From: Psammoneis japonica
Lineage: Eukaryota
Length of the DNA: 64,000 bases
Reading direction: 5' to 3'
Assembly: GCA_008632985.1 (NCBI GenBank)
Contig: QPGO01000005.1
Coordinates: forward strand, 1-64,000
The notes under the pieces were generated by a model. That model made no database searches. It saw only the letters and a program-made list of their open reading frames with translations, and had not been told where the DNA came from. Positions 1 through 31,545 of this stretch are shown here, piece after piece (position 1 is the stretch's first letter; every line of letters starts with the position of its first letter). The translations under genes were made by a program, and so were the position numbers.

Positions 1-1744
1 TTTGAGAACCATCTATGTTGGGATGATGTCTCTGATGCTCCATGCCCCAAATCCTTGTCTCCTCCAAGTTCTGCATCTCCACCAGCTGTTGCTGCAGGTC
101 CTGCTCCTGGGGACTTTGCTGAGGCCTCAGCCACTTGTTTGCCCCGTCCAAAAGAGCATGAGCAAGCTTTGACCAACTCATTGGAGAGTGCTTCACCTCC
201 ATCTGGGCCTCCTGGCACTGCTGCCATGACCTTGACTTTGCCCAGTGTTTCATGCACTTCCAATCCGAAAGGACTTCCTGAGGGTGAACTGGCTCATTGC
301 GATCAGGACATCTCCGGCGACTGTGATGGAATGGAGAAAGCTGCTGTGATTTCCACTGCATCTCTAACCTGTCTTTCGCATCCTCATGAGCTTGTGGCAT
401 CCAAGTTGGGCCAAGTTGCCGGGTCCAGCACATGCAACAATGATGCCACTGTTGCATCTCATGTTGCAGATGCACTCGCCATGGACACTCGGATGGACCC
501 TGCGGATGCCAATTCTTTGAACATCAAGTCCATCAAGTCTGTTGTGGCATCTGCGGGTGAGCCACCTGGCAGCTCTTGATTCTGGATCCCTCGAATTTCC
601 TGCCGAGTCCATGGTGCTTCCTGCCGAAGTCCACACCTGCCTGCTCAAGACCCAGAAGTTTTTTGTGTCTGGCGGTCCCATTGTTTCATGCAATGGTGGT
701 TGTTTTAATCCATTGGATGGAACACACTGTGTTGCCAAGGTCACCAATGAGCTGTTTGCTGCCTCTCTGGTGCCGTCGTGTGACACGCATGATGCCCAAG
801 GATGCAGCCAGAGCTCTGTTGGTTGTCAGGTTGACACGTCTTTGGATTTTTGGCTCGGCTGTCATCAATTTCGGACATGCGCTGCTGCCATTCCTTCCAT
901 CATCCGAACAAGACCAATGGAAGCGGGGTGGTTGTGAAAGAGGGCCAACGAGTCTTGCTGCCTTCCGCCATCCGGTCTCTTTCCTTCACTCTCAGGACCG
1001 TTGCGATGTCGAGTGGCATTTTTCCTGGTGCTCCCGACCTGTTGACCATCCCCGATGATGACCCTGCACTTTATGATCAGATGAGGGTTTCCCACAGTGC
1101 AGAGGAAACAAAGAAGGCTGTTGAGAATTACAAACTCAATCAAGAAACCTCACTTGACGACCATGATTTGAATGCCGTGCGATGCTTGCCTGCGATGCGT
1201 CACTGTTCTTCCGATGTTGAGCAACACTGCGATGCACTTTGCATGTCCAACACATTTTTCAGGGGCGACACAACTGGTGGTAGAAGCATTGGCTTGTCAG
1301 ATGGATTGCTGTTGGCTCATTTTCACCGCATCATCCGCCATGGTGGTTTTCCAATTTTTGGCCTCATCTCTTTGGATCTGTTTTGGCGACGGCATGACTC
1401 GCCAGAATGTCCCATTGCGGTCGATTGTTTGTGGATTGACGAACTTGTTCTTTGTTGCACGACTCAATTTATCCAAAAGATTTGTTGGGAACTGCCTTTG
1501 ACATTTTTTGTCGAAGACCGATGCACTTGCTGCGGGTTGGGTGCTTCCTTGCCGACACGCTCATTGTTTGATGGGGTGTTGTTGTTGATTGTTGTCATGT
1601 TTGCAGATCAAGTCTTGGCCATTTCTTTTGGTCCTTCTCTTTGTTCTGCCATTCTGGTCCTCATTTTTTCTTCGGATTGTCTCTTTTCTTTCTTGATGAG
1701 CTGTTGCATTGCTCATCAGGGGAGGGTGACAGACATCCGAGATG

Positions 1745-2021
1745 GGGAGCACACTCCCTTGTGTCGGACAGACTGGCATGGACAGCACAGAGAGATCTGA
1801 TGATCTCTCTCTGCTCACTTTCTTTCTCATCTAGCACACGATTGTCATCTGTCCCAAACATCCGTTAGATTGTCCCGATGCCGGGAGCACACTCCCTTGT
1901 GTCGGACAGACCAGCACAGACAGCACAGAGAGATCCGATGATCTCTCTCTGCTCACTTTCTTTCTCATCTAGCACACGATTGTCATCTGTCCTAGATGTC
2001 CATTGGATCATCCCGATGCCG
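1745..2021 (+). repeat. Tandem direct repeat, two ~138-bp units
   Basis: GGGAGCACACTCCCTTGTGTCGGACAGAC...CATCTAGCACACGATTGTCATCTGTCC...CCCGATGCC begins at 1745 and again at 1883. Confidence 0.9.
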
Positions 2022-3690
2022 CTAGTCCGCAACCTGCTCACCAGTGTTAATCTGAAAACACTTGTGGCCACCAGCCCCGGTGCACTTTTGTGAGCTCCTC
2101 CTTGAGATCAGCGTTGCACAGCTGTGCCAAGGCCCATCTTCGTCAATCCAAATTTTCCAACCCAAACATCCCTCTCTTCTCCAAGCACTCTTCCTTCTCC
2201 TCATCCTGGCTCCTCCAAGTTTGATGCTCACCTTTCCCCAAGTCTGGTCCATGCTGTGTGTCTCGCAGCCTCCTCCACAGCGGCCTGGGGGGCTCCCTCC
2301 TCTTGATCCTCAACACCCAGCCAATTTTCTTTGTTCACAATGATGCTCCAATCAAACACAAGCTGATCATCTTTGCTGACCCCTCTGTTGCAGACATTGT
2401 GGGTGCCAACCTTCAAGGCTGTCCAGGTTTTCTTGCTGCTGCCCAACTCTTCAATCTTGTTCATTCATTCATGCCAACCTCCCCAACTCAGCCCCACCAA
2501 CCCTTCTCCTGTGCTCAAGCCGCCAAGCAACCTTCCCAAGACACCCATTCTGAAACCACCTTTTCTCTCTTTGCTGTGTCTTGGCACCCTCCTCTGCCCT
2601 CCTGACTCTCCTCACCTGCCCAGAAGTGCTTCTTCCCACCCTGCTGAGACATTGACACCAACACTGATGCAGAAGCTCTGTGCCACACCTCTTTTCACAC
2701 CACCTCTTGGTTGGAAGGGGGTGCTGGGTGAGGTGGAGGTGCCAGAGGGCTCCATTTCTGGAGGGTGGACCTGAGGAGTTGGGGCTGTGATTGGAGCAAA
2801 TGGCTTCTCTTGCAGCAGGGCAACCTGCTCCAGGGAGTGACAGGCGACATGGCATTGAGCACATGCAGCAAAGGTGTGTCAACAGCATGGCAGTCATGTT
2901 GGCAGTGAACAAGATCCATGCTTTCAGAGGGGGTTGTGTTGTCAGGACCTGGCCCACCTCCTCTGGGACCATCTTGTCATGGCCCACAAGCACCAAAGCA
3001 TTCTTTGAAATGTCCTTCTTGATTCCTTCTTTGAGCAACACAATCTTTGCCCTTGTTGATGCCATCAAAAAATGCTGAGATTTGTCTGTGCAACTCCTGC
3101 CTCAATGCCCACATTGCCAACAAGCACCATTGCCCCCACACCTCTGCCAGCCTTTGACTCATGTCTTCTGGCCACCCTTCAAAAAAAAATGCCTGGCTGG
3201 ACCTCTTCCCTCCAGTGGCTTGAAGCCCTCACTCTCACACCTTTCCCTTTTTTGAGCCTCCCTCTGGCACAAGCTGTCCTCATCCTCCTGCCTCCAAGCT
3301 TGTCACACCCTCCACCCTCTCATCAGCATTGACACCTCTGCCCCTGTGGACAATGACTCCCCTCCCCTTGGCAAACCTCTTCAGCCCCTTGTTGGAAACT
3401 CCTTTTTCTTTTCAAGTCCCTTGTTCTTTGCCCCTGACCCAAGACATCTGACCAGCCACACTTGTTCTCTGCCCTCATCTCCAAGTGCCTTCCCTTTTTG
3501 AAACAGCCCAGTTTGCTCTTTGGATGACTCCTCTCAAGTCTCAAGCAGAGCCTCCCCCACCACCCCTTCTGATGACCCACCCAATTTGATGCCTCTTTGC
3601 CAGCATCCCAACCAGCACCATGACCACCATCTTCAATGGCCACCCTTCCTTCAGCATGAAGGTTTTGTCCAAGGTTGCCCCCCTGGCCCC

Positions 3691-3798
3691 ACTTTCTTGA
3701 GCCTTGTCCTCATGTGTGTGCTCACCCCACTTGACCAAGAACTGCATGCCAGTGCTTCTTCCCTCCCCACTCCTCCCCAGATCCAGCACACCAGCCAT
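3691..3798 (-). pseudogene. Possible degenerate chromodomain fragment
   Basis: VLDLGRSGEGRSTGMQFLVKWGEHTHEDKAQES resembles the chromodomain (F/Y)LVKWxGYxxxxxxWE motif with Y->H. Short and heavily decayed. Confidence 0.3.
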
Positions 3799-6700
3799 TG
3801 GAGTGCAGATCACAGACAGAAAATGGAAGGTGTCATTGTTCTGCAGGCTGAAAAAATGGTCGGGAGACAAAGAAAAATCCTTTTGGGAACAAAAAATGAT
3901 GTTGGCTTGATTGGATCACAAAATGATGAAGTCAAAAAAGAGAGCACATCACAGAGTTCAGCAACACAGCTCAAGGCCACAACCTGAAAGAGTGCTGAAG
4001 GGCAAAGAGAATGTGGTGACATGACAGGCTCCCCAAATGCTGGGGCTGTGGCGGTGGTGCAAGCACCAGCAGAAGAGAATGAGAGGAGGACAGCAATGTG
4101 GCAGACTCCATGAGCACCAGGGCTGTGACAACATGAGCACCATCAGAAGAGAATGAGAGGTGGATCTCAGAGAGATTTGCTCATCAGTCCAAAAGGGTGG
4201 TCTGGTCATCATCCATGTTCAGTCTGTCCATGGTGTGAAGATTGCTTTCTGGAAAAGATTTGCAACCAGCAGCTCTTCTGCAGGGTCTTTGGTCTCTGGT
4301 GGGCTCACATGATTGAGGGCATGTTCTTGCAAGAGATCAGCCACAGCATCTTATGATTTTGCACGTTTGGCATCACAAAAAAAAGTTGAGCCCAACAGTT
4401 CTTGAGCCACCACAAAGGCAGCACAAATGCTCAGAAGCCCCACTGCAGCGAGGACACAGTTGGAACACTGTGCTGATCTCCACAAGGGAGTCAACGACAG
4501 TCTTTTTGAGGGTCAGATGTGCCACAGTGGAGGGCAAAAAATGCACACACACCACAAAACAATTTTGTTGACAATGCTGGGAAATGTCAGCTGCAGAAAC
4601 AAAAAATGGGCTGGCTTGATTGGCTCACAAGCAAAACAAGCCATGGTGGAATTTTCAACACAGAAAAGAGCACAAACTGCTCACAAGGCCACAACCAGTC
4701 AGAACAGCAACAGCCAGCTGAGCTGACAAGCACAAGAGTCCTCTCTGTAAACTGGCAACAGCAACAACACATGCACTGGTGAGAAAGAGTGAGAAGAGCA
4801 GATCTCAGAGAGATCTCACTCATCTGTCTGAAGGGTCTGGCTGTCATCCATGTGCAGTCTGACCATGTGCAATGGTCAGTCTGCTGACGCTCTCACAATG
4901 ACAGCCCAGCTTGCTGCCTCTCTGTTTCTCTTGGCAGCGCTGGCTGCCATGACATTCCTGATGCTGCAGCTGTCCTGCCCTCTCTCCATCTCTCTTGCCC
5001 ACTCTCTCCTCTTTGCCAAACAAGGCATCCACTCAACAGGTGCTGACCAACACTTTTTCCTGCCTCCCAGCTGGTCTGCTGCCCTCTCCTCCTGGTCTGA
5101 CCCGTGCCAATTTTTGATTCCTTGCCACTGCCCTCTTCCAACTTGACTCTCCCAGCTTTTCCTCTGTGTCTTCTTCTGTCTCCAATCACATCCTCCACAG
5201 TCTTCCTCAACAAACAACCCAACTTTGCTGTCATCAGCACAGTGCCCTTCTCCTGCTCCTGTGCCATCCTGACCTCCAACTGGCCCTCTCTTCCTGTTTC
5301 TTTTTTCCTTGCTGACTTGTGCTTCCATTCCCTCTCACAAGCCCATCCAAGTGACCATCTCTCATCCTCGTCCCATGTCTCCCTCCTCCTCTTCCTCTGC
5401 AAGCTCCACCGCCCTGCTGTCCTCCCTCCAACCTCTGACACACCTGCCTTGTTGCCCCTGTGGACAGCACGGCTCAGAGATCCCTTTGGTGGCCATGTGC
5501 TCACTTGCTCCAAGATGCGTGCAAGGGCCCTCTCTCCAGTGGCGTCTTTGACAAAATCTGTGATGTCATTGAAAACTGTGGTCCTCTCAGCAGCATTTGT
5601 CACTCTTGTCATCTCATGTCCTTCTCAAACTGCTGGCTGGTCATCCCAATCCCTGACTGCCCTCTCAAGTGACCTGCCAACATTGAAGCACAGCTTGCGC
5701 CAGGCTCAATGTGGCCTCCCTGTGCTCTGTGCTCCCTCCATCCACCACTTCCTTGCTTTCAATGTCATGGTCCCTCCAGCTCCTCCCCATCCTGCACTTG
5801 GTTGCCTGCTCCTTCCAGCTCACTTGCCAAGGCTTGCCCCTCAGCTGCACTTGTGACAACCTTCTGGGGTGCAGTGCCCCTTCCAACAGCAGCTCTTTTG
5901 TCATCATTGCAGTCAACCAATCCAGCCTTTTTCTTCTCCCCTTCACTCTTGATCACTGGGGTGGAATGGGCTGCCATTTCCACACCCTCTTCTTTGGCCA
6001 CTCACCCAACAACTCTTCCTCTGTCCCACCCCTGCATCCCAAGCTCCCCTGGAACAACCAGCCCAACTTCTCTCATTCTCATGCTTCATTTTTTTCATCC
6101 CACAAATCTTCTCTTGCTCCTTTTGCCAGTCAACCTCCTTGTCCAAGCCACCATCACCTGGAAACAACTTCTCGCCAATTGTTTTGGCTCTGTCCATCAT
6201 TCATCTGCCCCCCAGTCAATGGTCTGTTCAATTTCTTGGTGCCTCAACCTTGGCCTGGCTCTTTCCAACCACCTGCCAATCCTTTCTTTGCTTTGCTGCC
6301 CCCCTCTGCTTCCTTCCATCCATCTGTCTGCATCTCTGAGCCCAGCCTTGTTTTCCAAACCCAGTCACCACACACACTTGCACTGCCCCCCTGATCCTTT
6401 TGTGCTGCAATTTTCCCTTTGTTGCCACAAAACAACTTGGCCAAGTTGGAGCAGACCCTGATGGCTTCTGCAGCATTGCACGCTGCTTGTGTCAGTGCCT
6501 CCACATGCAAAATGTCAAGTGACTGTTGCATCCTGCAGCCTCATTGGAGCTCTTTTCAAATGAAAAGAAAGGCGCCGTTGGTGCTGGGAGGCAGAACACA
6601 GCAGTGCACACTCTCAAGAAAAGAGTGACAGGTGCAAAAACAGAGCAGAGGAAAGAAAAGCAACCACACAATGATGGCTGATTTGTCATCATCCATCCAT

Positions 6701-6867
6701 CCATTTTCATCTTGTGGCAGAGAATTTGGATGTTGGATGTGAGCCCAATGAAAACTTCCATTGTCCAGATCATGATGGATTGGGGGGGGGGGGGGGGATC
6801 TCTTGCTTGTTGCAGTGCTTTCATGTGTGCCAAACAACAGATTGTCAAAGGCTGGCTGTTGTGCCAA

Positions 6868-7106
6868 GTTGAATGCCATCTGCAATGCCACCCACAGTGT
6901 CATGTTGAAATGCTGGCCACCACCACATTGTGTTGAATGCCATCTGTGCAGTGTCATGTTGAATGCTGGCCATCATCATGTTGCATCAAACACCATCTGC
7001 AGTGTTTTGTGCTGTCATGTTGAGTGTTGAATGCTGGCTGTCACATCACATCAAATGCCATCCTGTGTGTTGCGTCAAATGCCAGCTGTTGCATCATGTC
7101 AAATGC
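6868..7106 (+). repeat. Degenerate short tandem repeats (GTTGAATGCCATC / GTGTCATGTTGAATGCTGGC)
   Basis: Several imperfect copies next to the Tc1-like remnant; possibly subterminal repeats. Confidence 0.6.
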
Positions 7107-7229
7107 AGTTGATCAAGATGCTTCAGAGCAGCAAAGTTCAGTTGACACATCAAAAAACAAAATTAGACAAACCAACAGCAACAGAGGCACAGGTGAAAAA
7201 GTTGTCAAAATCATTGCTGCCTGCTTCAC

Positions 7230-8230
7230 TTTTCTTGCTGCATTCTGGAACCCTGGCATTTTGAAAAAGTTGTGGGCTCTTGTTGGCATCATTTCTGCCA
7301 ACACAAGCTCATGACCCCAGTCCCTTGCAGCATCTAAATTGCATTAATTCCACCTTGCATGAGCTTCCCACTGTTGCCCTCAATGAGGTCACAAACTCTG
7401 TTGGAGATGTGAACAGATGCATTGTCTGCAACCACAGCCAAGCCTGGTTCATAAAGACAGCATTTCCAAAGTGCAGGAACCACTTTTTCTTCCACACGAG
7501 CCTTGAATCTGGCCATGTCCACTGTTCCACATTCTGTGTCTTTGTTGTTGGGATGATTGTGCACATGCTCCACCATCTTGCAAGATTCTTTCACAAACCC
7601 AGCATGTCATCAGAGGCAATTGGGGGTTGCACCACTTGTGGAAATCTTTCTCAAAATGCAAATCAACCACAGGTGGATTGTCCAGTTCCTCCCATCCTCC
7701 AGCATGCAGACACTGAGGCACATTTTGTTTTGGCTGTTTCATCAAGAAATGCAGCTGTTGTGGGTTTTGGTGGGAACACATCCAGCCATCTTTGATGCCA
7801 CTGCTTTTCAGCTTCACACCTCTGTTGGGCACAGACTGTGGCCTTCTACAAGCTGTGGCCAAGTCAAAACAGTTGGCACCACGTGTCACTTGGGCTCCAT
7901 GTTTTGCCATGTCTCTCCTTTCTGTTGCCAGCTGCATCTCATCAAGGTGCAAATGGGGCATCTCTCTTTGATGGCATGGAGCACATCATGATTGTCAGCT
8001 TCAGAAAATGAACAAGCAGCTCTTGTTGTGACATCATGCCATCTTTTCCAGCTTCTTGCTCTGTGATGAGTTTCAGCTTTCATCTCACCAGGCTGGAGCA
8101 GATGAAGCCACTTCCAAAAGGTTTTGCATGGGGTGCTCTTCATCCAAGAGCCATCTGTTTCCTGCCAATCATCTTTGTTGAATGTTTGCACTTTGTTCCC
8201 ATCATTCTTGCCAGCACAGCTCAAAGACTT
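7230..8230 (-). mobile_element. Decayed IS630/Tc1-mariner (DDE) transposase
   Basis: Frame-broken fragments in the expected order: PHLHLDEMQ (cf. PxLYLDE), AFLDETAK (first catalytic D) and GTVDMARFKARVEEKVVPAL...AVVADNASVHISNRVCDLIE (DNAxxH, second D). Confidence 0.75.
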
Positions 8231-9105
8231 GCCACCTGGCTAATCTGTTGTTGTTTCAATGTGTGCCTTTGGGATTTTCTTGTCATCATGCTGAACTCCA
8301 CCATGGCTTCATGAGGCTGGAGGACACAAACAAGCAAAGCAGTGCACTCCAGGTTTCACAGACCCCCCTGAATTGCATCAATTCTTTCTGTGCCCCCAAA
8401 ATGGTTTTTGCTTCTTTCTTCTTGCCACAAAAAGAAGCCAGAGCAACCGCGATGCAGGAAGCTGCATCAAAAAAAAAAGCGCCATTGGTTGCATGGTGCA
8501 TGACCACAACAAAAGGAGCACAGATTGTCATGACAACAATGCTTGCCATGACAGTGCAGCATTCAGACACTCTTCTCAGTGCAACAAACAAATGATGTGA
8601 GCCATAAAAGCCAACGGATGAAGCCAAATCAACAAAGCACAAACAACATGGCCAATGGCATGTGGTCAAAGCCCACAACCGTGTGGTGTGCAAAATGACT
8701 TTTTGTTGTGTGATGACACAACAATGCAACAATCAGGCCTTTCTCAATGCAGTGAACAAACAATGCAGGCCATGAAAGCCAACAGATGAAGCTGAGTCAA
8801 TGAAGCACAAACAACATCATGGGGCTGCTGACAGATGCAAAAACATGCAACATCAGTGGAAGTGGCTCTTTGAGTGCTTCTCAATGAGCCCACAATCAAT
8901 TTTTGAAGAAAAGGCAAAAAAGCAGATTCTTGCATTGATTTCTGATTCAATGATGCCTGGCTGAATTTCAAAAGAGGTCAAATGGGGACAAAAGTGTGAC
9001 AGCATCTCAACAAGTGCTGCTGTGTGGCACAGCTGCATTGAAAAAACTCACATTTTGCTTCTGCACGTGCAAGATTTCATGCTTGGGGCAAAGTGTGCAG
9101 AGTGT

Positions 9106-9510
9106 TGGAGGGGCAAAAGTTGCAAGCTCAGAGCGGGGCCAATGGCAAAGAACAGAGACAATGGCAACAAATGCATGTGCACACATGTGGTGCCACAAGG
9201 GCATGTTTGGTTGGAGGGTGATGCCCCGTTGTGCTCAACAGATTCCTGTCATTGTGGTCTGCCCAGCTCATTTGCAAACTTACTTTGAGGTTGTTTGGGC
9301 TTTTGTTTGTGGCCTCTGGGGTGAAGTCTGGACATGCATGGCTCCTCCAGTCTGTTTCTTCAATGAGAACAACCTGTGCTGCTGCTGTCACCAGAACAAA
9401 TGCTCTGAGACAGATGATGCAAGCTTCACAGCTGACCTCACTCTGAATGGCCACAGTCCAAAGTCAATGAATGCACTCTGTTTGTGCTTGACTGCCAGCC
9501 TGGCAAAGGC
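9106..9510 (+). pseudogene. Hypermutated copy of IMP1-like exon 2 and its 3' flank (source ~31131-31525)
   Basis: Colinear with the source. NKCMCTHVVPQGHVWLEGDAPLCSTDSCHCG vs DKCMSTYVVPQGHVWLEGDAPLCSIDSRHYG, followed by indels and stops. Confidence 0.92.
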
Positions 9511-11445
9511 AAAAAGACACAGACCTGGTTTAAAGTTCTGTCACACCATTGACTGGCATGTTCAACATGGGCCAACCCACACTTCTGGCACACTGACATG
9601 CAGCAGAAGGGGAAAGGATTGGCCAGAACTGGCATCACCTGATGGCAACACCTTTCAGAAATGACTGACAATGGGGTGGGCACCACAAATTGCAAAGTGC
9701 GTCACCTCCTTGATTGTGCTCCATTTGAGACAACGCTTGCATGCAGAAACCCAGCTCTGCATTTTAGCCACACAGAGTGGGTGGGGTGTTTTCCTCTGCT
9801 GAGTCCAAAAGCAACTCTTGATCCTCTGCAAAACGGTTTTGACACCTGTTGCACACAGCCATGGATTCAGCCTCAGGAGCAAGACAATGATGTTGAGAAG
9901 TCTTTCTTGAGTCAACATCACAACCATGAACTTGTTTGTTGTGTGACTGCCACATGCTGTGTAAATTGTGGGGAGCTCAAAGCACTGTTGGGTGGCACCA
10001 GATGTTTAACAGGTGCCTGCTCAAGTTCTGGAACACTTTCCAAACCACTCACCTTCATGAAACTGGAGCCCACAACAAGCACCAAGCTCAAGAGGAGAAC
10101 AAACCCCCTCCTGATTGAGTGCTCTAAGTTGGGCACTTCATTTGGAAATTGTGATGGGAGGTGCCATTTCATCATGGGTCCAAGCTTCAGGTGCAAAGAA
10201 GAGAAAATCTTCTGGAGAGGATGTGTGTGGTGTCAAGTTTGTTGCCATGCTTGTGAAGCCCTTGAGGGAACTTCCCATGCTGAGGCTCATCCGAGGGACA
10301 CTTGACAGCGTGGTCACAGTCTTCCATGGGTGCTCACAAGACAAGCATCAGTGCCATCAGGCAGGATTGCACCTGCAAAGAACAATCTTGTTTGTGGGAA
10401 GAAGCAGACACAAGTGTCATCTGTTCTGACAATGAACCAAGCTGGTGTGAGCGACCGTCCAGTCAATGAGAGCTGAGTCAGATGAGTGTTGCCAGCTGCA
10501 CTCACACATGCACTCCAACAAGGGAGAAGCAATGGCAGCACATTGCTTGGGGGTGCTTGAGCCTGGCAGAAACAATGCCATCTGATGACAAAAGTCAAGC
10601 TTGACAGCGAGGAAAGGGAGTTGCAACAGGCATGTCATGAGAATGTCACCCATGAAGCTGATTGGCCAATCCATCAACTCCAACATTGACCCAAGCATTG
10701 AGGGGCAACAAGTCTACCAGGGATGTGCAATTTTGATGACTTGTGAACCAAGACACTGGTGAGCCAACCATGAGGAGGAAGAATCCAAGTGAGAAACAAT
10801 GGCACACAACAGCTGGCAAACTTTGTTGACAACACCCCAGTCTGAAGATGGGACATGTGTGCCATGTGGCATCACAGCCAAAAGTCCATCTTCTGATGGT
10901 CTGCACCAGAAGAGTCCAATGAAGGCCTGGCAACCAAAAGGTGGCTGGGCACACCTGCCAGACCTTGTTGTTGCAGCGCGGGGGCATTGATGCCCAGGCA
11001 ACAGGATGCGCTGCAATGCTCCAAGAGCTGAAACAAAAACCTGCAAACAGATGGCACACCACAGGCTTCAACCAAATGCTGGTCAAGCAACCGCCAATCG
11101 TGAGACAGTCTCCGAAAAGCCAAAAATGGCGCCATCGTCTCTTGATGCACACGGGGACCATTGCCACCTGCTGCAGAGTGCAAAGCAAGTTGACAAACAA
11201 CCTCGGACAAAGGGACGTTAAATGATGCCAACTGAGAGACGAGCAAGACTCTCACTGGGGCAAGGATCTGAGGCGAGCAGAGAACACGTCAGGGGGGGGA
11301 GGAGGCTCGAACATTGCCAGTTTGGAGATGGGGGGGGGGGGGGGCGGGGGCCAAAGATCCAGCAAGTGCCCACCATAGAGTGTAGACAACATAACCCAAT
11401 GTTGTCGCCGAGTTCCAAGTTTAGTAGATTACACATGGGTGTCTA

Positions 11446-12026
11446 CCAGCAAAAAACCGAATTGAGTCCTCATGACTGAACTGAGTCCTTGTCCGACCCA
11501 CATGTTGAATCGATCGATAAAATGATGAAAAAACCAAGTAATCAAACTGTTTTTTTTGCTGTGATAATCTTCAATTGCTGCTGCTTCTGACCATGTGTTT
11601 GGATTTGGGTGTTTCAGTTTTCTCCGGCTGCCCGTTGCCGTCGAACATGGTCGTTTGCATTTTTTGAAGCGGAAACGAGATTCAACAATTCTCATGTAAT
11701 TTTTTTATCAAGACACGTACATCATATATCCTCACTGCTCCGTGCTGCTTGCTGATTTGGAGATATGTTGAATTTCTTCTGGTACTTGACACGTAGAAAT
11801 GTACAGGGGGGCCGAATTGAGTCATTACGCGAAAAAGGTGCAACTTTGGCAGCTAGATTAAGCTAATCCCAAGCCCATTTCACAACCGACTATCATCAAA
11901 GAACTCGTTAAGAGATGATGAAAAGCTAGGAAATGCGAAGAAATGGTCAGTTTTAGGCCAATGATGGGCAAAAAATGGCCATTCAACATATGGCAAAAAT
12001 AAGGACTCAATTCGGTTTTTTACTGG
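11446..12026. mobile_element. Non-autonomous DNA transposon (MITE, Tc1/mariner-like), 581 bp, 28-bp TIRs, TA target duplication
   Basis: TA|CCAGCAAAAAACCGAATTGAGTCCTCAT (11446-11473) ... ATAAGGACTCAATTCGGTTTTTTACTGG|TA (11999-12026); 26/28 identity. Confidence 0.85.
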
Positions 12027-12530
12027 TACGGGGTCGTACCGGGTAAGAGAGTGCGTGGTCGGTGGTGCGCAGTGTGCTGGGTGGTGAAGTGAAGAAGGAC
12101 GGACCGAGGGTGCGGACATACGGGCGCGCGAGTGGTGGCGGTGGCTCCGTTGAGCGGGTGTACGGTATGTCGTCGAAGAAGAGCTTGGTAGTTGGAGAGA
12201 TGTGTTGAGAGGGCGAAGCCGAAGCTAAGGCGCATGATAGATGCTGTGTCTATCTCAGTGATAACATCATTCCTACATAGGGCCCTACGGTAGATACTGC
12301 GATCTCTTTTTATCGGCCTCCTTATTAATTGTGTTGTCTTTGACATGCAATAAACTTGATTCGTCGAACGCAATCATTCCTACGTAGATACTGGGATCAT
12401 TATCACTGTGTGCCAAAAATGCCAATGAAAAACGTTCTGGGGCACGCACGTGCAGTTAGACTATACCGAATACCATTCCTCAGAGGGATAGCACACCATA
12501 CCGGTATGCAGCTGCATAGGCTAGCAGAGG

Positions 12531-12903
12531 TATGACGTTTGGAGACCTACGACGTGTCTTCCGACTCACAATCTGCCCGCTTTCCCAAGTGGTTCTTCTG
12601 AATTCGGATGGGTGGTGGTTCATCCCTGGCTTTTTCTGCTCTCGCATGACTGCTCTGAGAGTTGCGACCCTCTTTTCCTGTTTCTCGATCTTTTGTTAAA
12701 CTTGGCACCAAGTTCCTGGTGGCACTGAATGTTCTCAGCAAAAATGGCCATGCATTCCTCGAACGAGCCACAGCCGAGATCGTTTCTCTGCAAATGAACT
12801 GAGACCTTGATTGCATCAATCCGCTGTTTCGAGTCATTTGTCAAACCCGAAACGTCGTCAAGTCGTTCCAAACAGCGCATCACGAAATGCAAGGATCTCT
12901 CAA
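12531..12903 (-). pseudogene. Deleted copy of the 3' end of the BTB-like gene (source ~31531-31985)
   Basis: MRCLERLDDVSGLTNDSKQRIDAIK...CGSFEECMAIFAENI and RDEPPPIRIQKNHLGKRADCES match the 31546-32613 protein. Carries internal deletions and a frameshift. Confidence 0.92.
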
Positions 12904-13144
12904 TGCTTCATCTGGTGAGACAAAAAAGGACAAATGACAGAAAAGAGTTCTTCTTGGCGTGAGCAATCGATCCTGTATTGAGGACAGTTCTTCATTCTGC
13001 AGCAATGTAAGCAATTGTTGACAGAACCACGACCATTATATTGCGATCTTAGTCTTCCATACTAAAACCTGTATCGACTCTGCCCCAGTGTTCAAAAATT
13101 GGTTTCCTTGTCCTTGTAGATTTGACTCGCCGCCACGACAAACT

Positions 13145-13855
13145 ATGCTAGGGTATAAAGCTTGTCGGAGTGTTGCCCTTTCGAAACTAAACGTGTCGCA
13201 ACACATCGCTGCAAAGACGAGCATTGTGCTGAACGCCGCCAATCACGTAATTATCGAGAGCCTCCACCTCCACCGACCCATGTACAGCTTCTTGGCGGTC
13301 GTTGGGTGAATACGAAATCACCTTGGAAAGCATTGTATCGTAGAGAGGCGTCACGACAAAGGCACTTGTGACACCCGGATCGACACAGACAGGGCTACCA
13401 GGAATATTCGCAGCGGGTGTGCGTGGAAAGAGTTTGAGAAGAGTACCTTGTGAGTTATGAACAACTGCACAAATAACAGCATATCATTCCGTACTCATCT
13501 TCTGCATAAATTCTTGCTTCGAGCGCATTTTCAAATTTGTGTGGCATAAAGACGTGAGTTTATTGTCCAGATGGCGGCTTACATTCTTAGGGCAAACCCC
13601 AACCGGCACCCGCATACAGCATACCCTTCACGAAATCGACGTTGTGAATTGTGAAGACACGGCTTCAGTAAAACGGGATGTTCCACCTGAAGGCGATTGT
13701 TCATTTCCATGAAGTGAAAGTCCTGTTGTTCATCGTTCATCCACCGAAAACTCGACTGCACTGGCACTGGTGTAATCCACCTCCTCGATAAACTTGACGA
13801 CTTGTTTCATCATGGCCTCACGTGTTGACGGCAACAACAGACAGGATGGCGATGC
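13145..13855 (-). pseudogene. PCCA: Biotin carboxylase-domain pseudogene fragment, most like propionyl-CoA carboxylase alpha
   Basis: Manual translation across frames: SPSCLLLPSTREAMMKQV...AVEFSVDE / FHFMEMNNRLQVEHPV / VDFVKGMLYAGAGWGLP* / ALEARIYAED / VCVDPGVT...TPLYDTMLSKVISY...ALDNYVIGGVQHNARLCSDVLRH*FRKGNTPTSFIP*. Multiple stops and frameshifts. Confidence 0.85.
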
Positions 13856-14400
13856 TCATGTATCAATTCAAAGGGCCTGTTCGGACATTCGCCTGTGATT
13901 GGGTGCCTGTCCTAAATCGTCCGCGTCTCTCTCGCTCAACAAGGCTGTATTCATGATATAGACGCAACAGGCAAGAAGGATTGGCGGGATTGGTGTGTGG
14001 TTGGGTCCCTCGTCCAGTGACACACACTCTTCCGACCGTGCCATTTCATGGTCCAATTCTTATGAAACCGCAAAGCAGTGGTTGGCGAGTATTTAAAGTA
14101 GAAAGGGCTCTTTGTTGACTTGTTGTCACGAGCGTGTATGTAAAAGTACGGTACTTTTTCTTTTCTACAATGAGCGGTCGATAGAGCATCTCTAGAGAGC
14201 ACACGTTTTGCTGATGACAAATATATTTTAAAACGCTTTTGCCGGAGCAGTAGCAACTAAAGTAGAATCGTAGATTGAAATATGTTTTGCAAGGAGCACT
14301 GCGGTTGCAACCCACATTTCTCAAAGAAAGCCAAGTAATTTCTCTAGGGTAGATAGCCAAGTAGATGTTTCGATTCATGTAACACAAAGCATGCAGGAAC

Positions 14401-15813
14401 CTATCTAGAGTTTTGGGTCCGAAATTCGCGGAATGTGACTGGAACATAAAAGAGTGGACGATGCGGCGGAATCGGTTCCAGGTCGTTCGACTCTTGTGTT
14501 GGCAATGGTCGTCCAACCTGATACTCAGATACTTGCTGTCCAGAAAGGGCAACAGGAATAATATCCAGGATTATGGGAATTGTCGGTCTGCATAATGGTG
14601 CATGATTAGAAGTGCCATTGTTTGTAGTAAGCGTTGGACTCGGTACTGCTGATTTCGGGACGAAGTACGGGGTGCCGTAGTTAGATATTACCGTCGTGAA
14701 GGTGGCATTTCCACTCTGGTTTTTTGTAGCTACTTGATCTTGGGGGAGGGTGCTGCTACTGCCATAGGCAAGATCCATCGTAACTGTTGGTTCGGCAGCA
14801 ACAGTTGGTGCTTCTGAGACAATCCCGCCTTGGAAAAGCGTGCTTGCAAAGTCTGTCTTGCATGGTCGTTGGGCGATCTGGGGAAACACATCAGAAGGAA
14901 CCTTGTCGAACTCGGAGCATTGCATTTGCTGTTGCAATGTCGACACGGTAAGTTCTCGTTCGGTTGGTTTGTTGACAAAATGAAACAGCTCTCCCGATAC
15001 TTTCACACCGGTCTTCCTGCCATCTACAGGCATAGAAGTTCGTACTACAGGAGGCAGTTCGTAGAAATCTGGTTCTAATCCCAAGAATCGGGCTTGACTT
15101 GGGGTCCGTTTAGCTCGTCGTGGCTGACGAGCAATGTCACAACAGAGATCTACTCTATCACGCAAGAAATTTGGATGGTAGTATGCCCCCTTATCTGGTC
15201 CGTGCTTCATTCGCACAAAGCCGTACGCCTGGAGCTGTCGCAAGAAAGATGCCATTTTGGTTTGATTGAAGTACCATTGGATGATGTTCATCTCAAAAGC
15301 ATCCTTGTCATGCACTTTGAAAGCTCTTCCATGAGGTCGCCAAGATGCAATGTTCTCCATACCCGACTTTTCCAAGTCACTCAAGAGCCCATGAAGGACC
15401 AGAGGAAATGGCTCATTGGCTCTCGTTTGCAGAGACATTGTTGTTGGATCAACAAGTCGTTCGCCATGATTAAATTCGGCTTCGGCCTCAAATGGGGCCA
15501 GTGGCTGGTGATTCACGAATGCATCATTGTCAGGGTTCTCTTCCCTCCTCGTCTTTTCTGCGTCGTCCTCTGGATCCGAACCGAGAAGACCATCAAAAAA
15601 TGACTCCATTGTTTGATCTTCCGCAAGATACTTTAACATCAAGTCACCGAGTGAAACTGGAGAGCTGCTTCTAGAAGTGGGAAGAGCAGCCGTCACGGCG
15701 GGCTCCTCGTTCATGCTCGCTTGATCATTCAAAATCATGCAGCTGTTGTCCTCTGCCGAAGTGTCACAAATGGCCTGAACATTGTGGCGCAAGGCATCTC
15801 CACACTTTTTCAT
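14401..15813 (-). CDS. Heat-shock transcription factor (HSF DNA-binding domain protein)
   Basis: FPLVLHGLL...SWRPHGRAFKVHD...YFNQTKMASFLRQLQAYGF...GPDKGAYYHPNFLR. First in-frame ATG at 15813; true start uncertain. Confidence 0.92.
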   Translation of the reverse strand: MKKCGDALRHNVQAICDTSAEDNSCMILNDQASMNEEPAVTAALPTSRSSSPVSLGDLMLKYLAEDQTMESFFDGLLGSDPEDDAEKTRREENPDNDAFVNHQPLAPFEAEAEFNHGERLVDPTTMSLQTRANEPFPLVLHGLLSDLEKSGMENIASWRPHGRAFKVHDKDAFEMNIIQWYFNQTKMASFLRQLQAYGFVRMKHGPDKGAYYHPNFLRDRVDLCCDIARQPRRAKRTPSQARFLGLEPDFYELPPVVRTSMPVDGRKTGVKVSGELFHFVNKPTERELTVSTLQQQMQCSEFDKVPSDVFPQIAQRPCKTDFASTLFQGGIVSEAPTVAAEPTVTMDLAYGSSSTLPQDQVATKNQSGNATFTTVISNYGTPYFVPKSAVPSPTLTTNNGTSNHAPLCRPTIPIILDIIPVALSGQQVSEYQVGRPLPTQESNDLEPIPPHRPLFYVPVTFREFRTQNSR

Positions 15814-16779
15814 TAGCACTGGTGGACAAGCTGAGTGCACGCCATCAGGGTCGATGTTGTCTTTCGAATTGTAACCTCTTCGTCACTACTGTAGGGCTAG
15901 TGGTACCATGTTGCATGAAGACCAGGCACTAGGGCCCTACAGTACTTACTCTAGCTGGGTGTTTTCAATGAACTTGGATTTGTGATGTGTGTGCGGCGGT
16001 CATCCCGTAGAAACTCCACAGTTCTGTACGGTACGACAGACTACTACATAGACTCAGACATAGACTGCGTCAGTACAGTACATAGAATGTTCTACTTGAC
16101 CGGCATTTCTGGGGGAAATGGTGGACATTTATGTAATCATCTGTTTGTCTCAAACAAGACGCAGCATAAATGTGGGGCCAGCCACAGTGGAATGGAGAGG
16201 GTCATTCCTACATCATCACACATCATGGACAGTGGATCACTCTCAGGTTCATCCGGTCCACTGTGGCGGCACCCCAATTCTTACAGTGTGTGAAAATGAC
16301 CCTTTTTCCTCTGCTGCACAATGAATCTGGATGGGGTCATTTGATCTCTTGAAAGCGACTGGGTGACACATCGTGGCAACGTGGGTGGCCTGGCATGCAA
16401 CGGAGCACCAAACACCGCCAGCTGCTGCCAACTCTGATGTTTGTCAGCCATCAGTGCCCTCAAATCCTCCCTCCCTGCTGCAAGCCAAATGGCGCTTGGG
16501 GGGCAAAAATGGCCTGAAAATGCTGTGTGTGACCAGTGTGTCCAAAAATTGAAAAATGTGCAGGTGGGTGGGCAGCCAATGACCTCTGGTGGCAGTGGAG
16601 AGCCGGCGACAATGCAGGCTGGCCCACGAACAGAAGCAAGGGCAGTGCACAACCCAGCAGCAAGAAAAAAGCCTGCAAATCATCAAAATTCTCAAGGAGG
16701 TTTTGGCTGCATCTTGTTGACAGAGTTCTCTGCAACTGAGCTGGCGCCCTCCAAAGCCACTGTGTTGTTGCCTCAAATT

Positions 16780-17780
16780 TGTTGATGAACAAGTTGTGGC
16801 TGTTGGGCTTCTGAGCTGACAACTGCTGCTGTGGCCACTGTTGCTCTGCTTGCCACTCTGACAGAGCAACAGCTGCTGGCTGCTGTGGCGGTTGCGTGGC
16901 TCCTGCAGCCGGGTGGCAATTTGGAGATGCAGTGCCAGCCAGGTGACCAGCGCAGGGGCAGCACAGCACTGCTGCTGCAGCTGTTGCTGTCGGCACCTGC
17001 CACAACCACTGCCACAACTGCCACAACCTGTGACTCTGGTGGAACAACTGCCACTGCTGCTGCAGTGACTCCTGTGGCTGGGTGACAAAGGGGGGTGCTG
17101 TGCTCTGGCCAGGCGACAAGTGGCAAGTGTGGAGATGTGCCACGCACCACTGCTGCTGCCCCCCCCCCCCCCCCCCAACCACTGCCGCAACTGGCTGCTG
17201 CTGTGACAATCACTGCTGCAACTGTTGGCACCTGAGACTTCTCTGGCAGGGCAACAAAAACTGCCGCTGCTGCAGCTGTGGCGATTCCCATGGTCGGGTG
17301 ATGAGAAGGGGGTGCAGTGCTGGTTTTGGGTGATGAGAAGGGGACAAGCCACCACTTCTGCAACTGCTGCTGCTGTGACCAACTGCTGCCACACATGTTG
17401 CCACTTGTGACTTTGGTGGGGTGACAACAACCACCACTGCTGTGACTGCCACATCAACTCTTCCGCAGTCAGGTGAGACAAGGGGGGGTTGCAGCACGGG
17501 TCAGGTGATGAGAAGGGGATGCACTGCTGCTGCTGCAACCACTGCTTCCCCAACAACTGCCACTGCTGTGACCATCAACTGCTGCAGTCATTGCCACTTG
17601 CAACTCTGGTGAGTTGACAACCACTGCTGCAACTGCCACAATGATTCTTGCAGACAGACAATGAGAAGGGCACTGTCAGGTGATGAGAAGGGGATGTTCC
17701 ACCACTGCTGAAACTGCTGTTCCGCCCCGATGGTGATTCCCAGCCGGGTGATGAGAACTGGAGCTGCTGCTGCTGCAAGG
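16780..17780. repeat. Low-complexity (CTG/CCACTGCTG) region with recurring GGTGATGAGAAGGG motif
   Basis: Motif or near-match at about 17297, 17329, 17504, 17660, 17679 and 17747, within CTG/ACTGCC-rich sequence. Confidence 0.7.
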
Positions 17781-20372
17781 AGTTTGTGTGCTTGGACTGC
17801 TTGGTGGTTGCTTCTTGGCCACTCTCATTTTGGCTTTTGTGGAGGCTGTGTTGCTTGCCAGTTGGGCATGACTCTTTTTGTGTTGTCTTCCACACCTTGT
17901 CCATTGGCAGCAGTGGCTGCTGCATTCCATGACACTCATTTCCAGCAGAGGTTTTGGACTGATGCTTTGCTGGTGCATCAACACATGCTCCTCTGATTGC
18001 CTTGAGCTCAGCTTCTCAACAAGGTGAGGATCAGAGTTGCATGCACTGCACGTGGCTTCACAGATTGCTTGCACTGCCTGACATGCCATGTGTTTTTCAC
18101 TTCATTCCAGCAGAGACTTTGTTGCATGTGTTTTCATTGTGTGTCCATGAAGCTGGCCTTGCCAATGTCTTCCTCTCCCTCCTCTGCTCCACAGGATGAT
18201 TCGGCCATTGTTTGAGATTGTGGTTTGTGAAAGAGAGCCTTGCACACTCATCTAAACTGGGGGACAATGCCAATGGACACATCAACATTGGAGCCCAAAG
18301 CTGGTGCTCCTGCCTTTGCCCAAAATGTGCCTTGATGAAGCTTTGGAGGCATTGAGGGCAGTGCTGGTTCAAAATGATCCCACCCATGCATGGTCATGTG
18401 CTGTCCGATGTCAAGATCCGGACAGATTTTTTGGGCTGAATCTGTCAAAAGAGTGGGACCCGCCCTTTCATTCTCAAAGCACAGGCCAAATGCTTTGTCA
18501 AAATGCTTGTCACTCTTCAAGAAGGCTGTGCAGCATGGCTCATCATGCCAATGAACGTCAACATCTTCAGGCTTTGGAAAGCACCTTGCAAGACGACCAC
18601 ACAGATGCAAGCACACAGGTCATGCCCCCCCCATTCTCCTCTTGCTGTCCACAACATGAGCACATCAGACAGAATTTGTCACTGACTTGACAGATTTTGA
18701 TGATGACACAAGTCCATCAAACCTCAACCAAATGGTGCTTGGCAACAGATTTGAAAATCATTTGGATCCACCAGCAGCAAGTGAGCCTGGTGGCATTTCC
18801 ACTTTACCCAAAACTTGCCAACAGATTCTCTCCACAAATGGTCATGGATTGACTGCATTTGCACAAGCTGGCAAGCTTGCTGCTGCAGCAAGCTGTGGCA
18901 CAAAAAACTCTGGAACAACAAATGTGTGCAGAAGCAGCACCAGGGCCCCAGCAGAAATGCCACAAAAGTCCGGAATTTTGTAATTTTTTGACATCCCTGG
19001 TGCTGATTCCATGACAGATTCTACGCAGTTTGTTGATGTTCCAGACTTTTTGACATTTCTGCTGAGGCCCTGGTGCTGTTTCCATGGAAATTTGTTGTTC
19101 CAGAGCTCTTTTGCAAGGTGGCAAGCTGTCAGACTGTGACACAATGGAGCAAGCTCTTCCTTTTCCAAGTTTGTTGGCAAGCTGTCCATTGCCTTTGCTG
19201 CCTTTTGCTCTTTGGGTTGGCTCTCATGTCAGAAACTCTGCATTGGACAAAGCAGCTTTTTGCAATGCTCTGATTTGCTTTGGCGCCCAGTGTGTGGTGC
19301 TTGATGGCCCCACCCTCAACTTCAGATGAGTTTGATGTTCATGTGCTTTTGCATTTGGCAAGCTTCTCAAAACACAGCCACATTTGTGTTTTGATTGCAA
19401 TGCACACATCATGAGCAAAGTTTGCATCAAAATTGTTTCATTGACTCCTTGTTGCAGCCAACAAAGCAAAAGTTTTCAAAAGCACGTGCTCATGTGTGGC
19501 ATCTCCAGCTTGTCTTCCAACCCTGCATCTGTTGTTCACAACAATGGAGTGTTCTTTGTTGCCTCCAATGCTGGATGTCCCACCAAGCTGGCATCGTTGC
19601 TGACACACAGCAGCACTGTCTTGTTCTTTAGCCACATTTGTGCAACTCCATGGTGAAGGCACAGCCTGTGGCCACCTTGGAACCACTGGTTTTGACTTTC
19701 ACAGGGGCCACAAAGCTTGTTGTCATTGTTGTTTGTCATGAGTTGGTTTTGGGCAGCAAATGAAGGATGGTCTGTGGTTGGAACAACCAACACCAACCAA
19801 GCATTGTTGCCTGCATGAGCCCCCCTTTTCACACTGAAAAAGAGAATTGACAATGAAAATGAGAGCTGAGGTCAGCTGCACATGCAAAATTTTTGAGTTT
19901 TGTGCATTGTGGTTGCATCCACTGATGCCAAGTCTTGAAGCTTTGGGGAGCCCACATCTGGGAGGAACTTGGTGCTTGCACAGCAACAGGCCCTGGCACC
20001 ATCTTCCCACTGGGGTTGCATGATGCTGATGATCTGGTGAGAGGAAGGGATTCTCAAGCCTCTCAAGCAATGCTCATTCTTGCAGCTACAAATCCACTTG
20101 CTTCAAAGTGAGTGTGGCTTCTGCCACTTGTCTGAGAGTCATGACATGATCATTTGCAAGGTTGCTTGAGCTTCTTTGCAAAACAACCCATTGCACAATG
20201 CCACGAAAGGTGTGGGGCAATGGCTTGCTCAAGGCACGGCTTGAGACATTTGCATTTTTTCTCCTTTTTTGTGATCCAACAGGAGAACTTGTTCTGGAGT
20301 CTTAAAAAGGCAAGACTTGGCATCAGCATTTGCAATTCTCACACTGAGTGCGTCAATCATGTGTGCCCACCA

Positions 20373-20606
20373 AGTCACGACTCAACGTCATTCTGGTCGC
20401 ATCTCACGACCACAACCCAGACTCAGATTTTCTCTTCAAAACAATTGGCTCATCACAAAATCGATTCAAACAGAAGCAACGACATTCGTCATAATTTCTA
20501 GACAACGACTTTCAACAAGCGTCTGTTTACCTCTGTCGCTGTTCACATTGCTGCCAACCTCCGAGGTCTCATCCATCCTGCTCAGCTGCAGGACTGTATC
20601 TCGACT
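20373..20606 (+). repeat. 5' LTR (234 bp, AGTC...GACT)
   Basis: Direct repeat of 27372-27605; preceded by TSD CACCA. Confidence 0.95.
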
Positions 20607-20768
20607 GGTTGTAGAGACCAATTTACGCGTTGACGAGAGCTCCTGACCGAGTCATCGTCACGGACGCTTTCGGTTTTTGATTTTGAAGCAAACCCGGGAA
20701 ACAGCTGAGTCTCTCTCGCTTCTCTCGTCTTCACTCTAACAAGAACCTCCCATGCTGCACTCTCTGTC

Positions 20769-26700: not shown

Positions 26701-27350
26701 CACTCCGACACCTCAAAGCAACTGCTGCTGAAGGTCTCATTCTCAAGCCTGCGCAAGATCATCGAGTTGATTGTTGCGTCGATTCTGACTTCGCGGGGTC
26801 ATTTGGTGTGGAAGATGGTCAAGACCCAGTTTCTGTCAAGTCCAGGACTGGATGCCTTGTCTGCTGCGCCGGCTGCCCGCTTGTCTGGGTGTCCAAGCTA
26901 CAGACTCTTGTGGCATTGTCGACTGTGGAAGCGGAATGTGTCGCACTTTCTCAAGCCATGCGCGATCTCATCCCTGTTCGTGAAGTTCTCAAGGAGCTCA
27001 ACCACCACGCATTCGGAAAGTCTGACCGCCAAAACCCAATCACGACTCACTCCAAGGCTTTTGAGCTCGCAACCCAAGGCACCGATGACTCGCCTGTAGA
27101 GCAGAATGTCCCACCTGCGTCCGTTGTGTGCGAAGATAACTCCGCGTGCCTCAAGTTCGCACGTGTGCCCAAGTTGTCTCTGCGAACCAAACACATCGGT
27201 ATCCCGCACCACTGGTTTAGGACTAAAGTCGAACAATTGGAGATCGACATCCAACCCATCAGCACTCTAGAGCAACTGGCCGATCAGTTCACGAAGGGAC
27301 TGCGGACCGATGCGTTCCGTGCGGCTAGAAAGGCTCTCATGGGCTGGTGA
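20769..27350 (+). pseudogene. Copia gag-pol polyprotein, one in-frame stop and numerous Tyr->Cys/His substitutions
   Basis: Zn knuckle CCGCGLEGCTKKTC, protease MDAGAT, integrase HARFGH...CEAC, VSVDH and QNGIAER, RT KARCCIRGD and VVHVDD, RNase H DSDFAG/EAEC/EDN/ADQFTK. The two long ORFs are in one frame, split by TGA at 26019-26021 (likely from CGA). Confidence 0.95.
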
Positions 27351-27371
27351 GCTCTCTCGGTTGAGAGGGAG

Positions 27372-27605
27372 AGTCACGACTCAACGTCATTCTGGTCGCA
27401 TCTCACGACTGCAACCCAGACTCAGATTTTCTCTTCGAAATGATTAGCTCATCACAAAATCGATTCAAACAGAAGCAACGACATTCGTCATGATTTCTAG
27501 ACAACGACTTTCAACAAGCGTCTGTTTACCTCTGTCGCCATTCACATTGCTGCCAACCTCCGAGGTCTTGTCCATCCCACTCAGCTGCAGGACTGCATCT
27601 CGACT
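27372..27605 (+). repeat. 3' LTR (234 bp)
   Basis: Follows the polypurine tract; followed by TSD CACCA. Confidence 0.95.
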
Positions 27606-31473: not shown

Positions 31474-31545
31474 TTCAAAGTCAACACACGTCTTCTGTTT
31501 ATGCACGACTAGTCTAGTTAAGGAAATTACATGAAGTTTGGAGAC

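Follow-up and report, generated by a model that had tools for sequence, protein, structure and literature searches.

Results

We analysed the first 64,000 nucleotides of Psammoneis japonica contig QPGO01000005.1 (assembly GCA_008632985.1, positions 1-64,000, forward strand; hereafter the window), in which a dead fragment of a host gene for an S26-family peptidase lies in DNA that has lost nearly all of its TA and CG dinucleotides, while the intact gene stands in the same window. The loci at the centre of the analysis are the following.

9106-9512, plus strand: F2, pseudogene fragment from the 3' part of the S26 gene, reaching about 50 bp past its stop codon
31131-31526, plus strand: source interval of F2, within the intact S26 peptidase gene, of normal composition
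30196-31473, plus strand: source gene, Peptidase_S26 / mitochondrial inner-membrane-protease (IMP)-like, with open frames 30196-31014 and 31018-31473

The two frames of the source gene are probably joined by an intron of about 90 nt. Frame 31018-31470 matches the Pfam family Peptidase_S26 (PF10502) with 30.3 bits against a gathering cut-off of 22.9, and the upstream frame 30196-31014 has GPSMLPT and KRIVGLE; these two motifs and GD..S.DSRHYGP are found both in the frames of the window and in a homolog of Thalassiosira pseudonana, the matches of that species to the upstream frame being annotated as 'inner membrane protease subunit 1 / signal peptidase'. An exhaustive protein search gave 148 relatives at E<=1e-10, many of them 336-441 aa long with the matching part C-terminal, and a search among proteins of near length with the S26 frame gave 3 matches only. 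The best named relatives come from a diatom. F2 is thus a fragment of a host gene, which bears out the proposal in a preliminary description of this DNA that non-transposon sequence also serves as a substrate.

BLASTN of 8000-11000 against the window aligned 9106-9493 with 31131-31510 (73.8% identity, 389 columns, E 7e-63), and Smith-Waterman alignment of source 31131-31526 with copy 9106-9512 gave 395 aligned pairs, 298 of them identical (75.4%), with 72 transitions, 25 transversions and 13 gap columns. None of the 26 source CG survives in F2 (16 read TG, 8 CA, 1 AG and 1 CC) and neither does any of the 12 aligned source TA (6 CA, 5 TG, 1 AA); the raw source interval has 13 TA, one of which is split by an alignment gap, so that 12 were scored. 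Altogether 35 of these 38 sites are TG or CA in the copy, and the remaining 14 dinucleotide types are retained at 43-83%. Divergence at non-target sites amounts to 33/203 (16%), for which a survival of about 70-74% of TA and CG, or about 9 of the 12 TA, would be expected; with a keep probability of 0.74 the chance of keeping 0/12 TA is about 1e-7 and that of keeping 0/26 CG about 6e-16. The near-total conversion of CG and TA claimed earlier on the strength of eight quoted word pairs is therefore confirmed, and all eight pairs occur in the alignment. The two CG and one TA that F2 has at present are secondary changes and not survivors, because the source has TG or CA at each of these positions. 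As observed/expected (o/e) dinucleotide ratios, TA and CG stand at 0.04 and 0.08 in F2 and at 0.58 and 0.96 in the source interval.

The source frame was aligned with 56 orthologs, and the copy was read codon-wise via the DNA alignment. Out of 113 codons 44 differ, and the orthologs support the source better at 38 of them and the copy at 3, the remaining 3 being tied. The residues R86 (in the DSR motif), R125 and P128, invariant in 56/56 orthologs, are Cys, Gln and Leu in the copy via CG>TG/CA; conserved Tyr codons have become Cys or His codons via TA>TG/CA (Y88 and Y140 turned to Cys via TA>TG), and the copy has six in-frame TGA stops. Because the orthologs back the source state at 38/44 differing codons, the copy is the mutated partner, and this comparison can be regarded as proving that the change ran from source to copy, as had been argued from the conserved residues of the intact gene. 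The suspicion that TG/CA might be the ancestral state is likewise excluded by the protein orthologs at replacement sites. A metagenome scan with the S26 frame for a close DNA outgroup gave only 4 distant loci, with 34-59% protein identity, and the changes were polarised on the protein orthologs instead.

The source gene itself was found untouched, in agreement with the preliminary description. Relative to 611 background windows of the same length (32-63 kb), the source interval lies at the 66th percentile for TA and at the 32nd for CG, the lowest TA o/e of any background window being 0.18. TA and CG o/e are 0.63 and 1.17 in the non-duplicated part of the S26 gene and 0.58 and 1.01 over the whole source segment 30334-31985. 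Of the coding sites in the three source segments, 17/32 TA and 42/64 CG have a silent route to TG/CA and yet persist, and the 53 bp past the source stop codon still have 4 TA and 2 CG; a loss of silent TA limited to the duplicated part of the source was not seen. A gradual mutator like that of Bigelowiella natans (see Discussion) would have erased silent-route TA and CG, and the source is therefore read as unexposed. At 7 sites the source has TG where the copy has CA or the reverse, which could mean that the source was also mutated; a rough estimate by hand from two-step changes in the copy and ordinary substitutions in the source yields about 5 such swapped sites, and they were not counted as exposure of the source.

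Three fragments of one duplication

Self-comparison of the window located two further fragments, in the same orientation as the source and collinear with it.

6468-6693, plus strand: F1, pseudogene fragment covering part of S26 exon 1 (source 30334-30563), 71.7% identity
12532-12903, plus strand: F3, pseudogene fragment from the 3' end of a convergent neighbour (source 31531-31985), 89.0% identity over 372 aligned pairs
31546-32670, minus strand: convergent neighbour gene, intact frame of 374 aa without a Pfam family; F3 was copied from its 3' end

F1 has kept 1/17 CG and 0/10 TA, and all 8 of its aligned TA became TG or CA. F3, which has deletions of 22, 43, 6 and 12 nt, has kept 1/11 aligned TA and 14/19 aligned CG, with 6 of the 10 changed TA now TG or CA. 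The spacing between F1 and F2 is 567 bp in the source vs 2412 bp in the copy, and that between F2 and F3 is 4 bp vs 3019 bp. Transversion divergence is similar in the three (18/226 in F1, 25/395 in F2, 17/372 in F3; chi-square p 0.23) and therefore fits a single duplication event. Judged from collinearity, the duplicate measured at least 1.65 kb (30334-31985), spanned two convergent genes and arose at the DNA level before it was interrupted. The possibility of a processed (retro) pseudogene was rejected, as no A-tail follows 9512 and the copy runs collinearly into the convergent neighbour gene (F3); the intron-bearing interval is absent from the copy, so the choice between retro and DNA origin was not made on intron loss. 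Transition-tolerant scoring recovered neither the middle part that the copy lacks (source 30564-31130) nor any continuation past F1 or F3, the scores not exceeding those of shuffled controls. No terminal repeats framing F1-F3 were found, nor any similar stretches in the other scanned windows.

The window was further compared with contigs from two sequencing runs, X1 and X2. One X1 contig spans F2 with its flanks (7061-11344) and two others span both edges of F3. Two poly-G tracts, 6774-6797 and 11327-11350, stand in direct orientation, both starting with GATGG; the former follows F1, the latter lies about 25 bp before the TA front of the surrounding domain, and X1 contigs end at both. The tracts could be genuine boundary elements or spots where the assembly is weak.

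Depleted domains and their turnover

F1 and F2 lie in the first of several depleted domains of the window.

1-11375: depleted domain with F1 and F2; over 1-10976 TA o/e 0.04, CG o/e 0.16
16300-20350: older depleted domain left of a Copia element; TA o/e 0.03, CG o/e 0.15
27606-28900: older depleted domain right of the Copia element, ending about 1.3 kb before the open frame of the source gene
20373-27605, plus strand: young Copia-type long terminal repeat (LTR) retrotransposon with RVT_2 and gag_pre-integrs matches, inserted into the older depleted domain
11444-12028, no strand assigned: element resembling a miniature inverted-repeat transposable element (MITE), 585 bp, with 30-nt terminal inverted repeats that are 93% complementary

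Together the old domains (1-10976, 16300-20350 and 27606-28900) show TA o/e of 0.01-0.04 and CG o/e of 0.15-0.33; TG/CA o/e rises to about 1.9 in depleted DNA, and the edges of the depleted regions are sharp at the scale of 300-bp windows. Equal depletion is seen in the flanks of F2 (TA o/e 0.02-0.10, CG o/e 0.08-0.11), where homology to the source is absent. The preliminary description had placed F2 inside a 'repeat domain'. The domain stands, as TA- and CG-depleted DNA; the word 'repeat' was an assumption, and none of the 62 open reading frames of >=90 aa in 1-11288 matched a Pfam family. No tRNA genes were found. Since TAA and TAG need TA, long open frames without a family match abound in the depleted domain (e.g. 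8954-9661). Tandem or near-tandem repeats occur inside depleted domains at 1745-2021, 8573-8817 and 17178-17723 (139 bp at 90.6%; 77-99 bp at 78-79%; a period of about 173 bp at 68% identity).

Comparison of the X1 contig that spans F2 with the window gave 64 differences, 40 of which were listed, and 32 of the listed ones lie in 6000-11375. Among these 32, 18 are exchanges between CG/TA and TG/CA that run both ways, and a further two form one CA/TG flip. Within F2, positions 9134 (CG in the window) and 9281 (TA in the window) have TG in the X1 contig and the source alike, and at 9176 and 9186 the X1 contig has CG where both window and source have TG. Such interconversion indicates that the few CG and TA of the domain are young products of ordinary transitions from the plentiful TG/CA, later removed again, and that the depleted domain is still turning over. 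X1 depth is at the single-copy level over most of the domain including the copy, the bin 8457-8807 standing at about 130 vs about 57. One X1 contig joins 7057 to 8347 and so skips 1289 bp, its shorter side being anchored by only 24 letters; this may reflect a structural variant within the depleted domain. Run X2 gave no cover over 6000-11264 and beyond 16179, and this was not used as evidence of silence.

TA and CG loss are separable

F3 retained 1/11 TA vs 14/19 CG (Fisher p 0.0017). The Copia element likewise has TA o/e 0.27 and CG o/e 0.95, with 93 TA left. Its LTRs (20373-20606 and 27372-27605, 234 bp each) are 94% identical and differ at 14 positions, ten of which form five CA-vs-TG pairs, three are TA vs TG/CA and one is of another kind. 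Each of the five pairs points to one ancestral TA struck independently in each LTR, and since 13/14 differences are TA-related, nearly all of the divergence after insertion is TA mutation in place; dating from the LTRs would consequently overstate the age of the element. Over 234 bp, 13 or more hits on TA beside a single other difference give only an indirect hint at a high per-site rate. At the right edge of the 1-11375 domain the two fronts are offset: CG is back from about 10977 and TA from 11376, so that the TA front lies about 400 bp further, and the 399 bp in between (10977-11375) have 16 CG (o/e 0.51) and 1 TA. Over F1-F3 both strands were hit nearly equally (TA>CA 15 vs TA>TG 10; CG>TG 23 vs CG>CA 17), which argues against editing of a single-stranded intermediate.

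TA and CG loss are thus two processes. Both dinucleotides were lost in F2, as had been claimed; the reading of their conversion as one process did not hold, as F3, the Copia element and the offset fronts separate them. The loss of TA is fast and further-reaching, that of CG slow and confined to old domains.

The MITE-like element has about 10-fold word depth in X1, with many loose ends exactly at its termini. It is not TA-depleted (o/e 0.48), though it lies 70 bp from the TA-free domain, and being repeated is therefore not sufficient for targeting. One of its arms has CCAGCA where the other reads CCAGTA.

Other genes and features of the window

The gene arm 30000-62900 has a TA o/e of 0.53, and the other genes at 30-63 kb are ordinary eukaryotic ones, encoding a kinesin, an ATR-type kinase, an SPX protein, an N-terminal asparagine amidohydrolase, an RRM protein and a glycosyltransferase. 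A further fully depleted domain, from about 63050 to 64000 (TA o/e about 0.05, CG o/e 0-0.1), immediately follows the last of these, the glycosyltransferase gene. At 15250-15850, in the 5' part of an intact HSF-type gene (14404-15882, minus strand), TA o/e falls to 0.14-0.21. The next depleted domain begins a few hundred bp away, at about 16200, and the dip could be spill-over or coding composition.

Discussion

Proposed course of events

We consider it probable, at roughly 0.6, that a duplication was followed by two context-specific transition processes which acted in place and in cis, on the copy only. A DNA-level duplication of at least 1.65 kb (30334-31985), comprising the 3' halves of two convergent genes, would have landed about 22 kb away, where the copy would have been broken into the collinear pseudogene fragments F1-F3, parted by about 5.4 kb of extra DNA. 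The first process would be a fast, TpA-restricted A:T>G:C hypermutation (TA>TG or CA) working about equally on both strands; it would have struck F1, F2 and F3 and would already have stripped most TA from the young Copia element, whose LTRs otherwise barely differ. Adenine deamination in DNA is our leading guess for its chemistry. The second process would be a slower decay of CpG to TpG/CpA, within large depleted domains only, that struck F1 and F2 only and is most simply explained by deamination of 5-methylcytosine in methylated silent chromatin. Targeting would act in cis on the silenced or non-functional locus, non-reciprocally between homologs, and the expressed parent genes would never have been exposed. 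In favour of such a regional rule in cis, the source was spared although a depleted domain ends about 1.3 kb upstream, the flanks of F2 are depleted without homology to the source, the repeated MITE-like element is not depleted, and the main target in B. natans is single-copy and silent.

Likeness to TpA hypermutation in Bigelowiella natans

The nearest counterpart is the TpA-restricted hypermutation of integrated DNA of nucleocytoplasmic large DNA viruses (NCLDV) and virophages in B. natans, as far as it is described in passages of Mettrop et al. (bioRxiv 10.64898/2026.01.13.699255). There, A>G and T>C changes, every one of them at TpA, made up 230/231 of the de novo mutations in two regions, with rates about 1000-fold over background in mutation-accumulation lines; an ADAT2-like adenine deaminase was proposed, not demonstrated. 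The NCLDV-derived hypermutable region is given in the same passages as single-copy and transcriptionally silent, so pairing would not be needed there. Both systems share TA>TG/CA (A:T>G:C) in sharply bounded regions with a normal genome elsewhere, and the passages also report long-term TpA depletion with CpA/TpG enrichment and count reverse-transcriptase and DDE coding sequences among the depleted ones. This type of spectrum is present in our window in F2 (11/12), F1 (8/8), F3 (6 of 10 changed TA) and the LTRs (13/14). As to a silent or foreign target, the parent genes and the gene arm are spared, the target is a host pseudogene, and F3 lies under cDNA-like X2 contigs. The two cases also differ: B. 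natans is a chlorarachniophyte (Rhizaria) and P. japonica a probable diatom (stramenopile); loss is saturating here (TA o/e 0.03-0.04) vs a rho of 0.45 given for the B. natans NCLDV region; and in the older domains here CpG loss accompanies TA loss. Moreover, the window holds a host gene fragment with its parent present, so that every change is polarised.

The CG component looks like ordinary decay driven by 5-methylcytosine, with which it shares the change to TG/CA (24 of the 26 CG changes in F2) and the limitation to transposon-like silent domains; such decay cannot account for the TA loss, which is faster and further-reaching. Diatom transposons are CG-methylated, and many diatoms have RID-related DNMT4 enzymes of unknown function, according to passages of Hoguin et al. 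2023 (PMC9998398).

Position, pairing or the duplicated piece

From the one-sided damage the preliminary description had concluded that targeting is based on position and not on pairing. The one-sidedness is confirmed. The conclusion does not follow from it, since repeat-induced point mutation (RIP) of fungi leaks beside repeats and selection could shield the source, and as a rule it is only partly supported: CG loss follows the domain, and TA loss also follows the duplicated piece F3.

F3 weighs against the course of events proposed above. This fragment lies within a TA-free islet of 427 bp (12549-12975, 1 TA, CG o/e 0.91), whose left edge falls within about 20 bp of the edge of homology and whose flanks are TA-normal (12029-12531 with TA o/e 1.08 and 13190-13855 with 0.52). 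The right flank is itself a pseudogene:

13190-13855, minus strand: frame-shifted pseudogene fragment of a biotin-dependent carboxylase, its matches to CPSase_L_D2 (positions 128-186) and Biotin_carb_C (27-93) being spread over three frames

Lying beside F3, it adds another piece of a host gene, one that is not TA-depleted and whose parent lies outside the window. An islet in TA-normal DNA is better explained by targeting of the duplicated piece than by that of a broad chromatin domain. The alternative is that 11376-12531, with the young MITE, came in as an insertion only after the islet had been mutated. X2 contigs, moreover, cover the islet. One of them (12254-14215) skips 82 nt (13007-13088) with GT..AG ends on the plus strand, and X2 depth is uneven, from which we infer that X2, although labelled 'DNA?', has the character of cDNA. 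On that reading a transcript from the plus strand crosses both F3 and the carboxylase fragment, and in F3 it runs antisense to the pseudo-coding strand. Two caveats also apply. No listed X1 contig spans the poly-G tracts, and the linkage of F1, F2 and F3 therefore rests on the assembly of the window and on collinearity; and dense bursts of mutation would link silent to lethal hits, so that selection could still have shielded the source.

Of the other explanations, we judge it unlikely, though worth serious attention, that the duplicated or non-functional piece itself set off the TA mutator, for instance by homology sensing or by way of aberrant transcripts, at sub-kb scale and non-reciprocally, a domain being then many adjacent targets. 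The F3 islet, which largely coincides with homology inside TA-normal and CG-normal DNA, speaks for such a trigger, and so does the transcript-like antisense X2 contig through F3, provided that X2 is cDNA. It is harder to reconcile with the flanks of F2, equally depleted without a partner in the window, with the multi-copy MITE 500 bp from F3, which is not depleted, and with the hypermutable NCLDV region of B. natans, single-copy in the passages cited above; the islet itself could be a relic if 11376-12531 was inserted later. In its strongest form, a diatom TpA mutator would pick single non-functional or duplicated pieces at sub-kb resolution, sparing the parent and adjacent DNA, earlier than and independently of CpG decay. 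We hold this to be doubtful. If true, such a copy-discriminating mutator would be a non-reciprocal genome defence, unlike RIP pairing or heterochromatin spreading, and one common to Rhizaria.

RIP of ascomycete fungi likewise inactivates transposons and duplicated pieces of genes through dense transitions in a specific context, and it too leaves domain-like footprints and spills over into neighbouring DNA. Passages of PMC2621366 and PMC3105345 state that it needs repeats, mutates both partners (PMC2621366) and leaks into adjoining single-copy DNA. A RIP-like pairing on the repeated transposons around the copy could thus have leaked into the fragment, the homology to the parent being too short or diverged, or the lineages with a mutated parent having died out, and some pieces of the domain do have raised X1 depth (8457-8807). 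We find this improbable: the chemistry runs in the opposite direction, as RIP makes C:G>T:A changes mostly at CpA and creates the TpA that is destroyed here; single-copy depth prevails over most of the domain, F2 included; the duplicate is at least 1.65 kb long and linked, yet 17 silent-route TA persist in an untouched parent; and the target in B. natans is, in the cited passages, single-copy. Fungal RIP proper was rejected, as two of its defining features, C:G>T:A at CpA making TpA and mutation of both partners, fail here.

It is very improbable that the fragment was mutated before its arrival, in a transposon, a virus or an extrachromosomal intermediate with captured host DNA. Although F1-F3 are interrupted by DNA without Pfam identity, the LTR pair shows TA mutation in place after insertion, the hits fall about equally on both strands, unlike those of single-stranded intermediate editing, the differences between X1 and the window show ongoing turnover of the domain, and the fragments retain the order and orientation of two convergent chromosomal genes. 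The reading that no special mutator was at work and that F1-F3 are an old pseudogene in neutral decay can draw on the 16% non-target divergence and on the commonness of CpG decay in methylated DNA, and is already contradicted by the TA counts (0/12 kept vs about 9 expected, 11/12 changed by the single transition to TG or CA), by the 13/14 TA-related differences of the young LTR pair and by a TA o/e of 0.03-0.04 over many kb vs 0.53 in the gene arm and 0.18 in the lowest background window, and thus hardly credible.

On the rule by which targets are selected, the window has evidence on both sides, and F3 is the most informative piece for it.

Significance

Literature searches gave no description of TpA hypermutation in diatoms. 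The process appears to have been reported in one other alga only, and the window would add a second algal lineage and host-derived DNA as its target. A fragment with a surviving parent constitutes a natural experiment: it polarises the changes, identifies host DNA as a substrate and indicates a parent that was never exposed, while F2, F3 and the Copia element together separate the fast TpA process from the slower CpG decay. In practical terms, depleted domains yield spurious long open frames, a trap for gene predictors, and their transposons are invisible to homology searches. The finding raises the testable question of how the cell tells which copy to mutate. If the same TpA mutator operates in chlorarachniophytes as in diatoms, lineages of the stramenopile-alveolate-rhizarian (SAR) group may widely possess an uncharacterised genome defence based on DNA editing.

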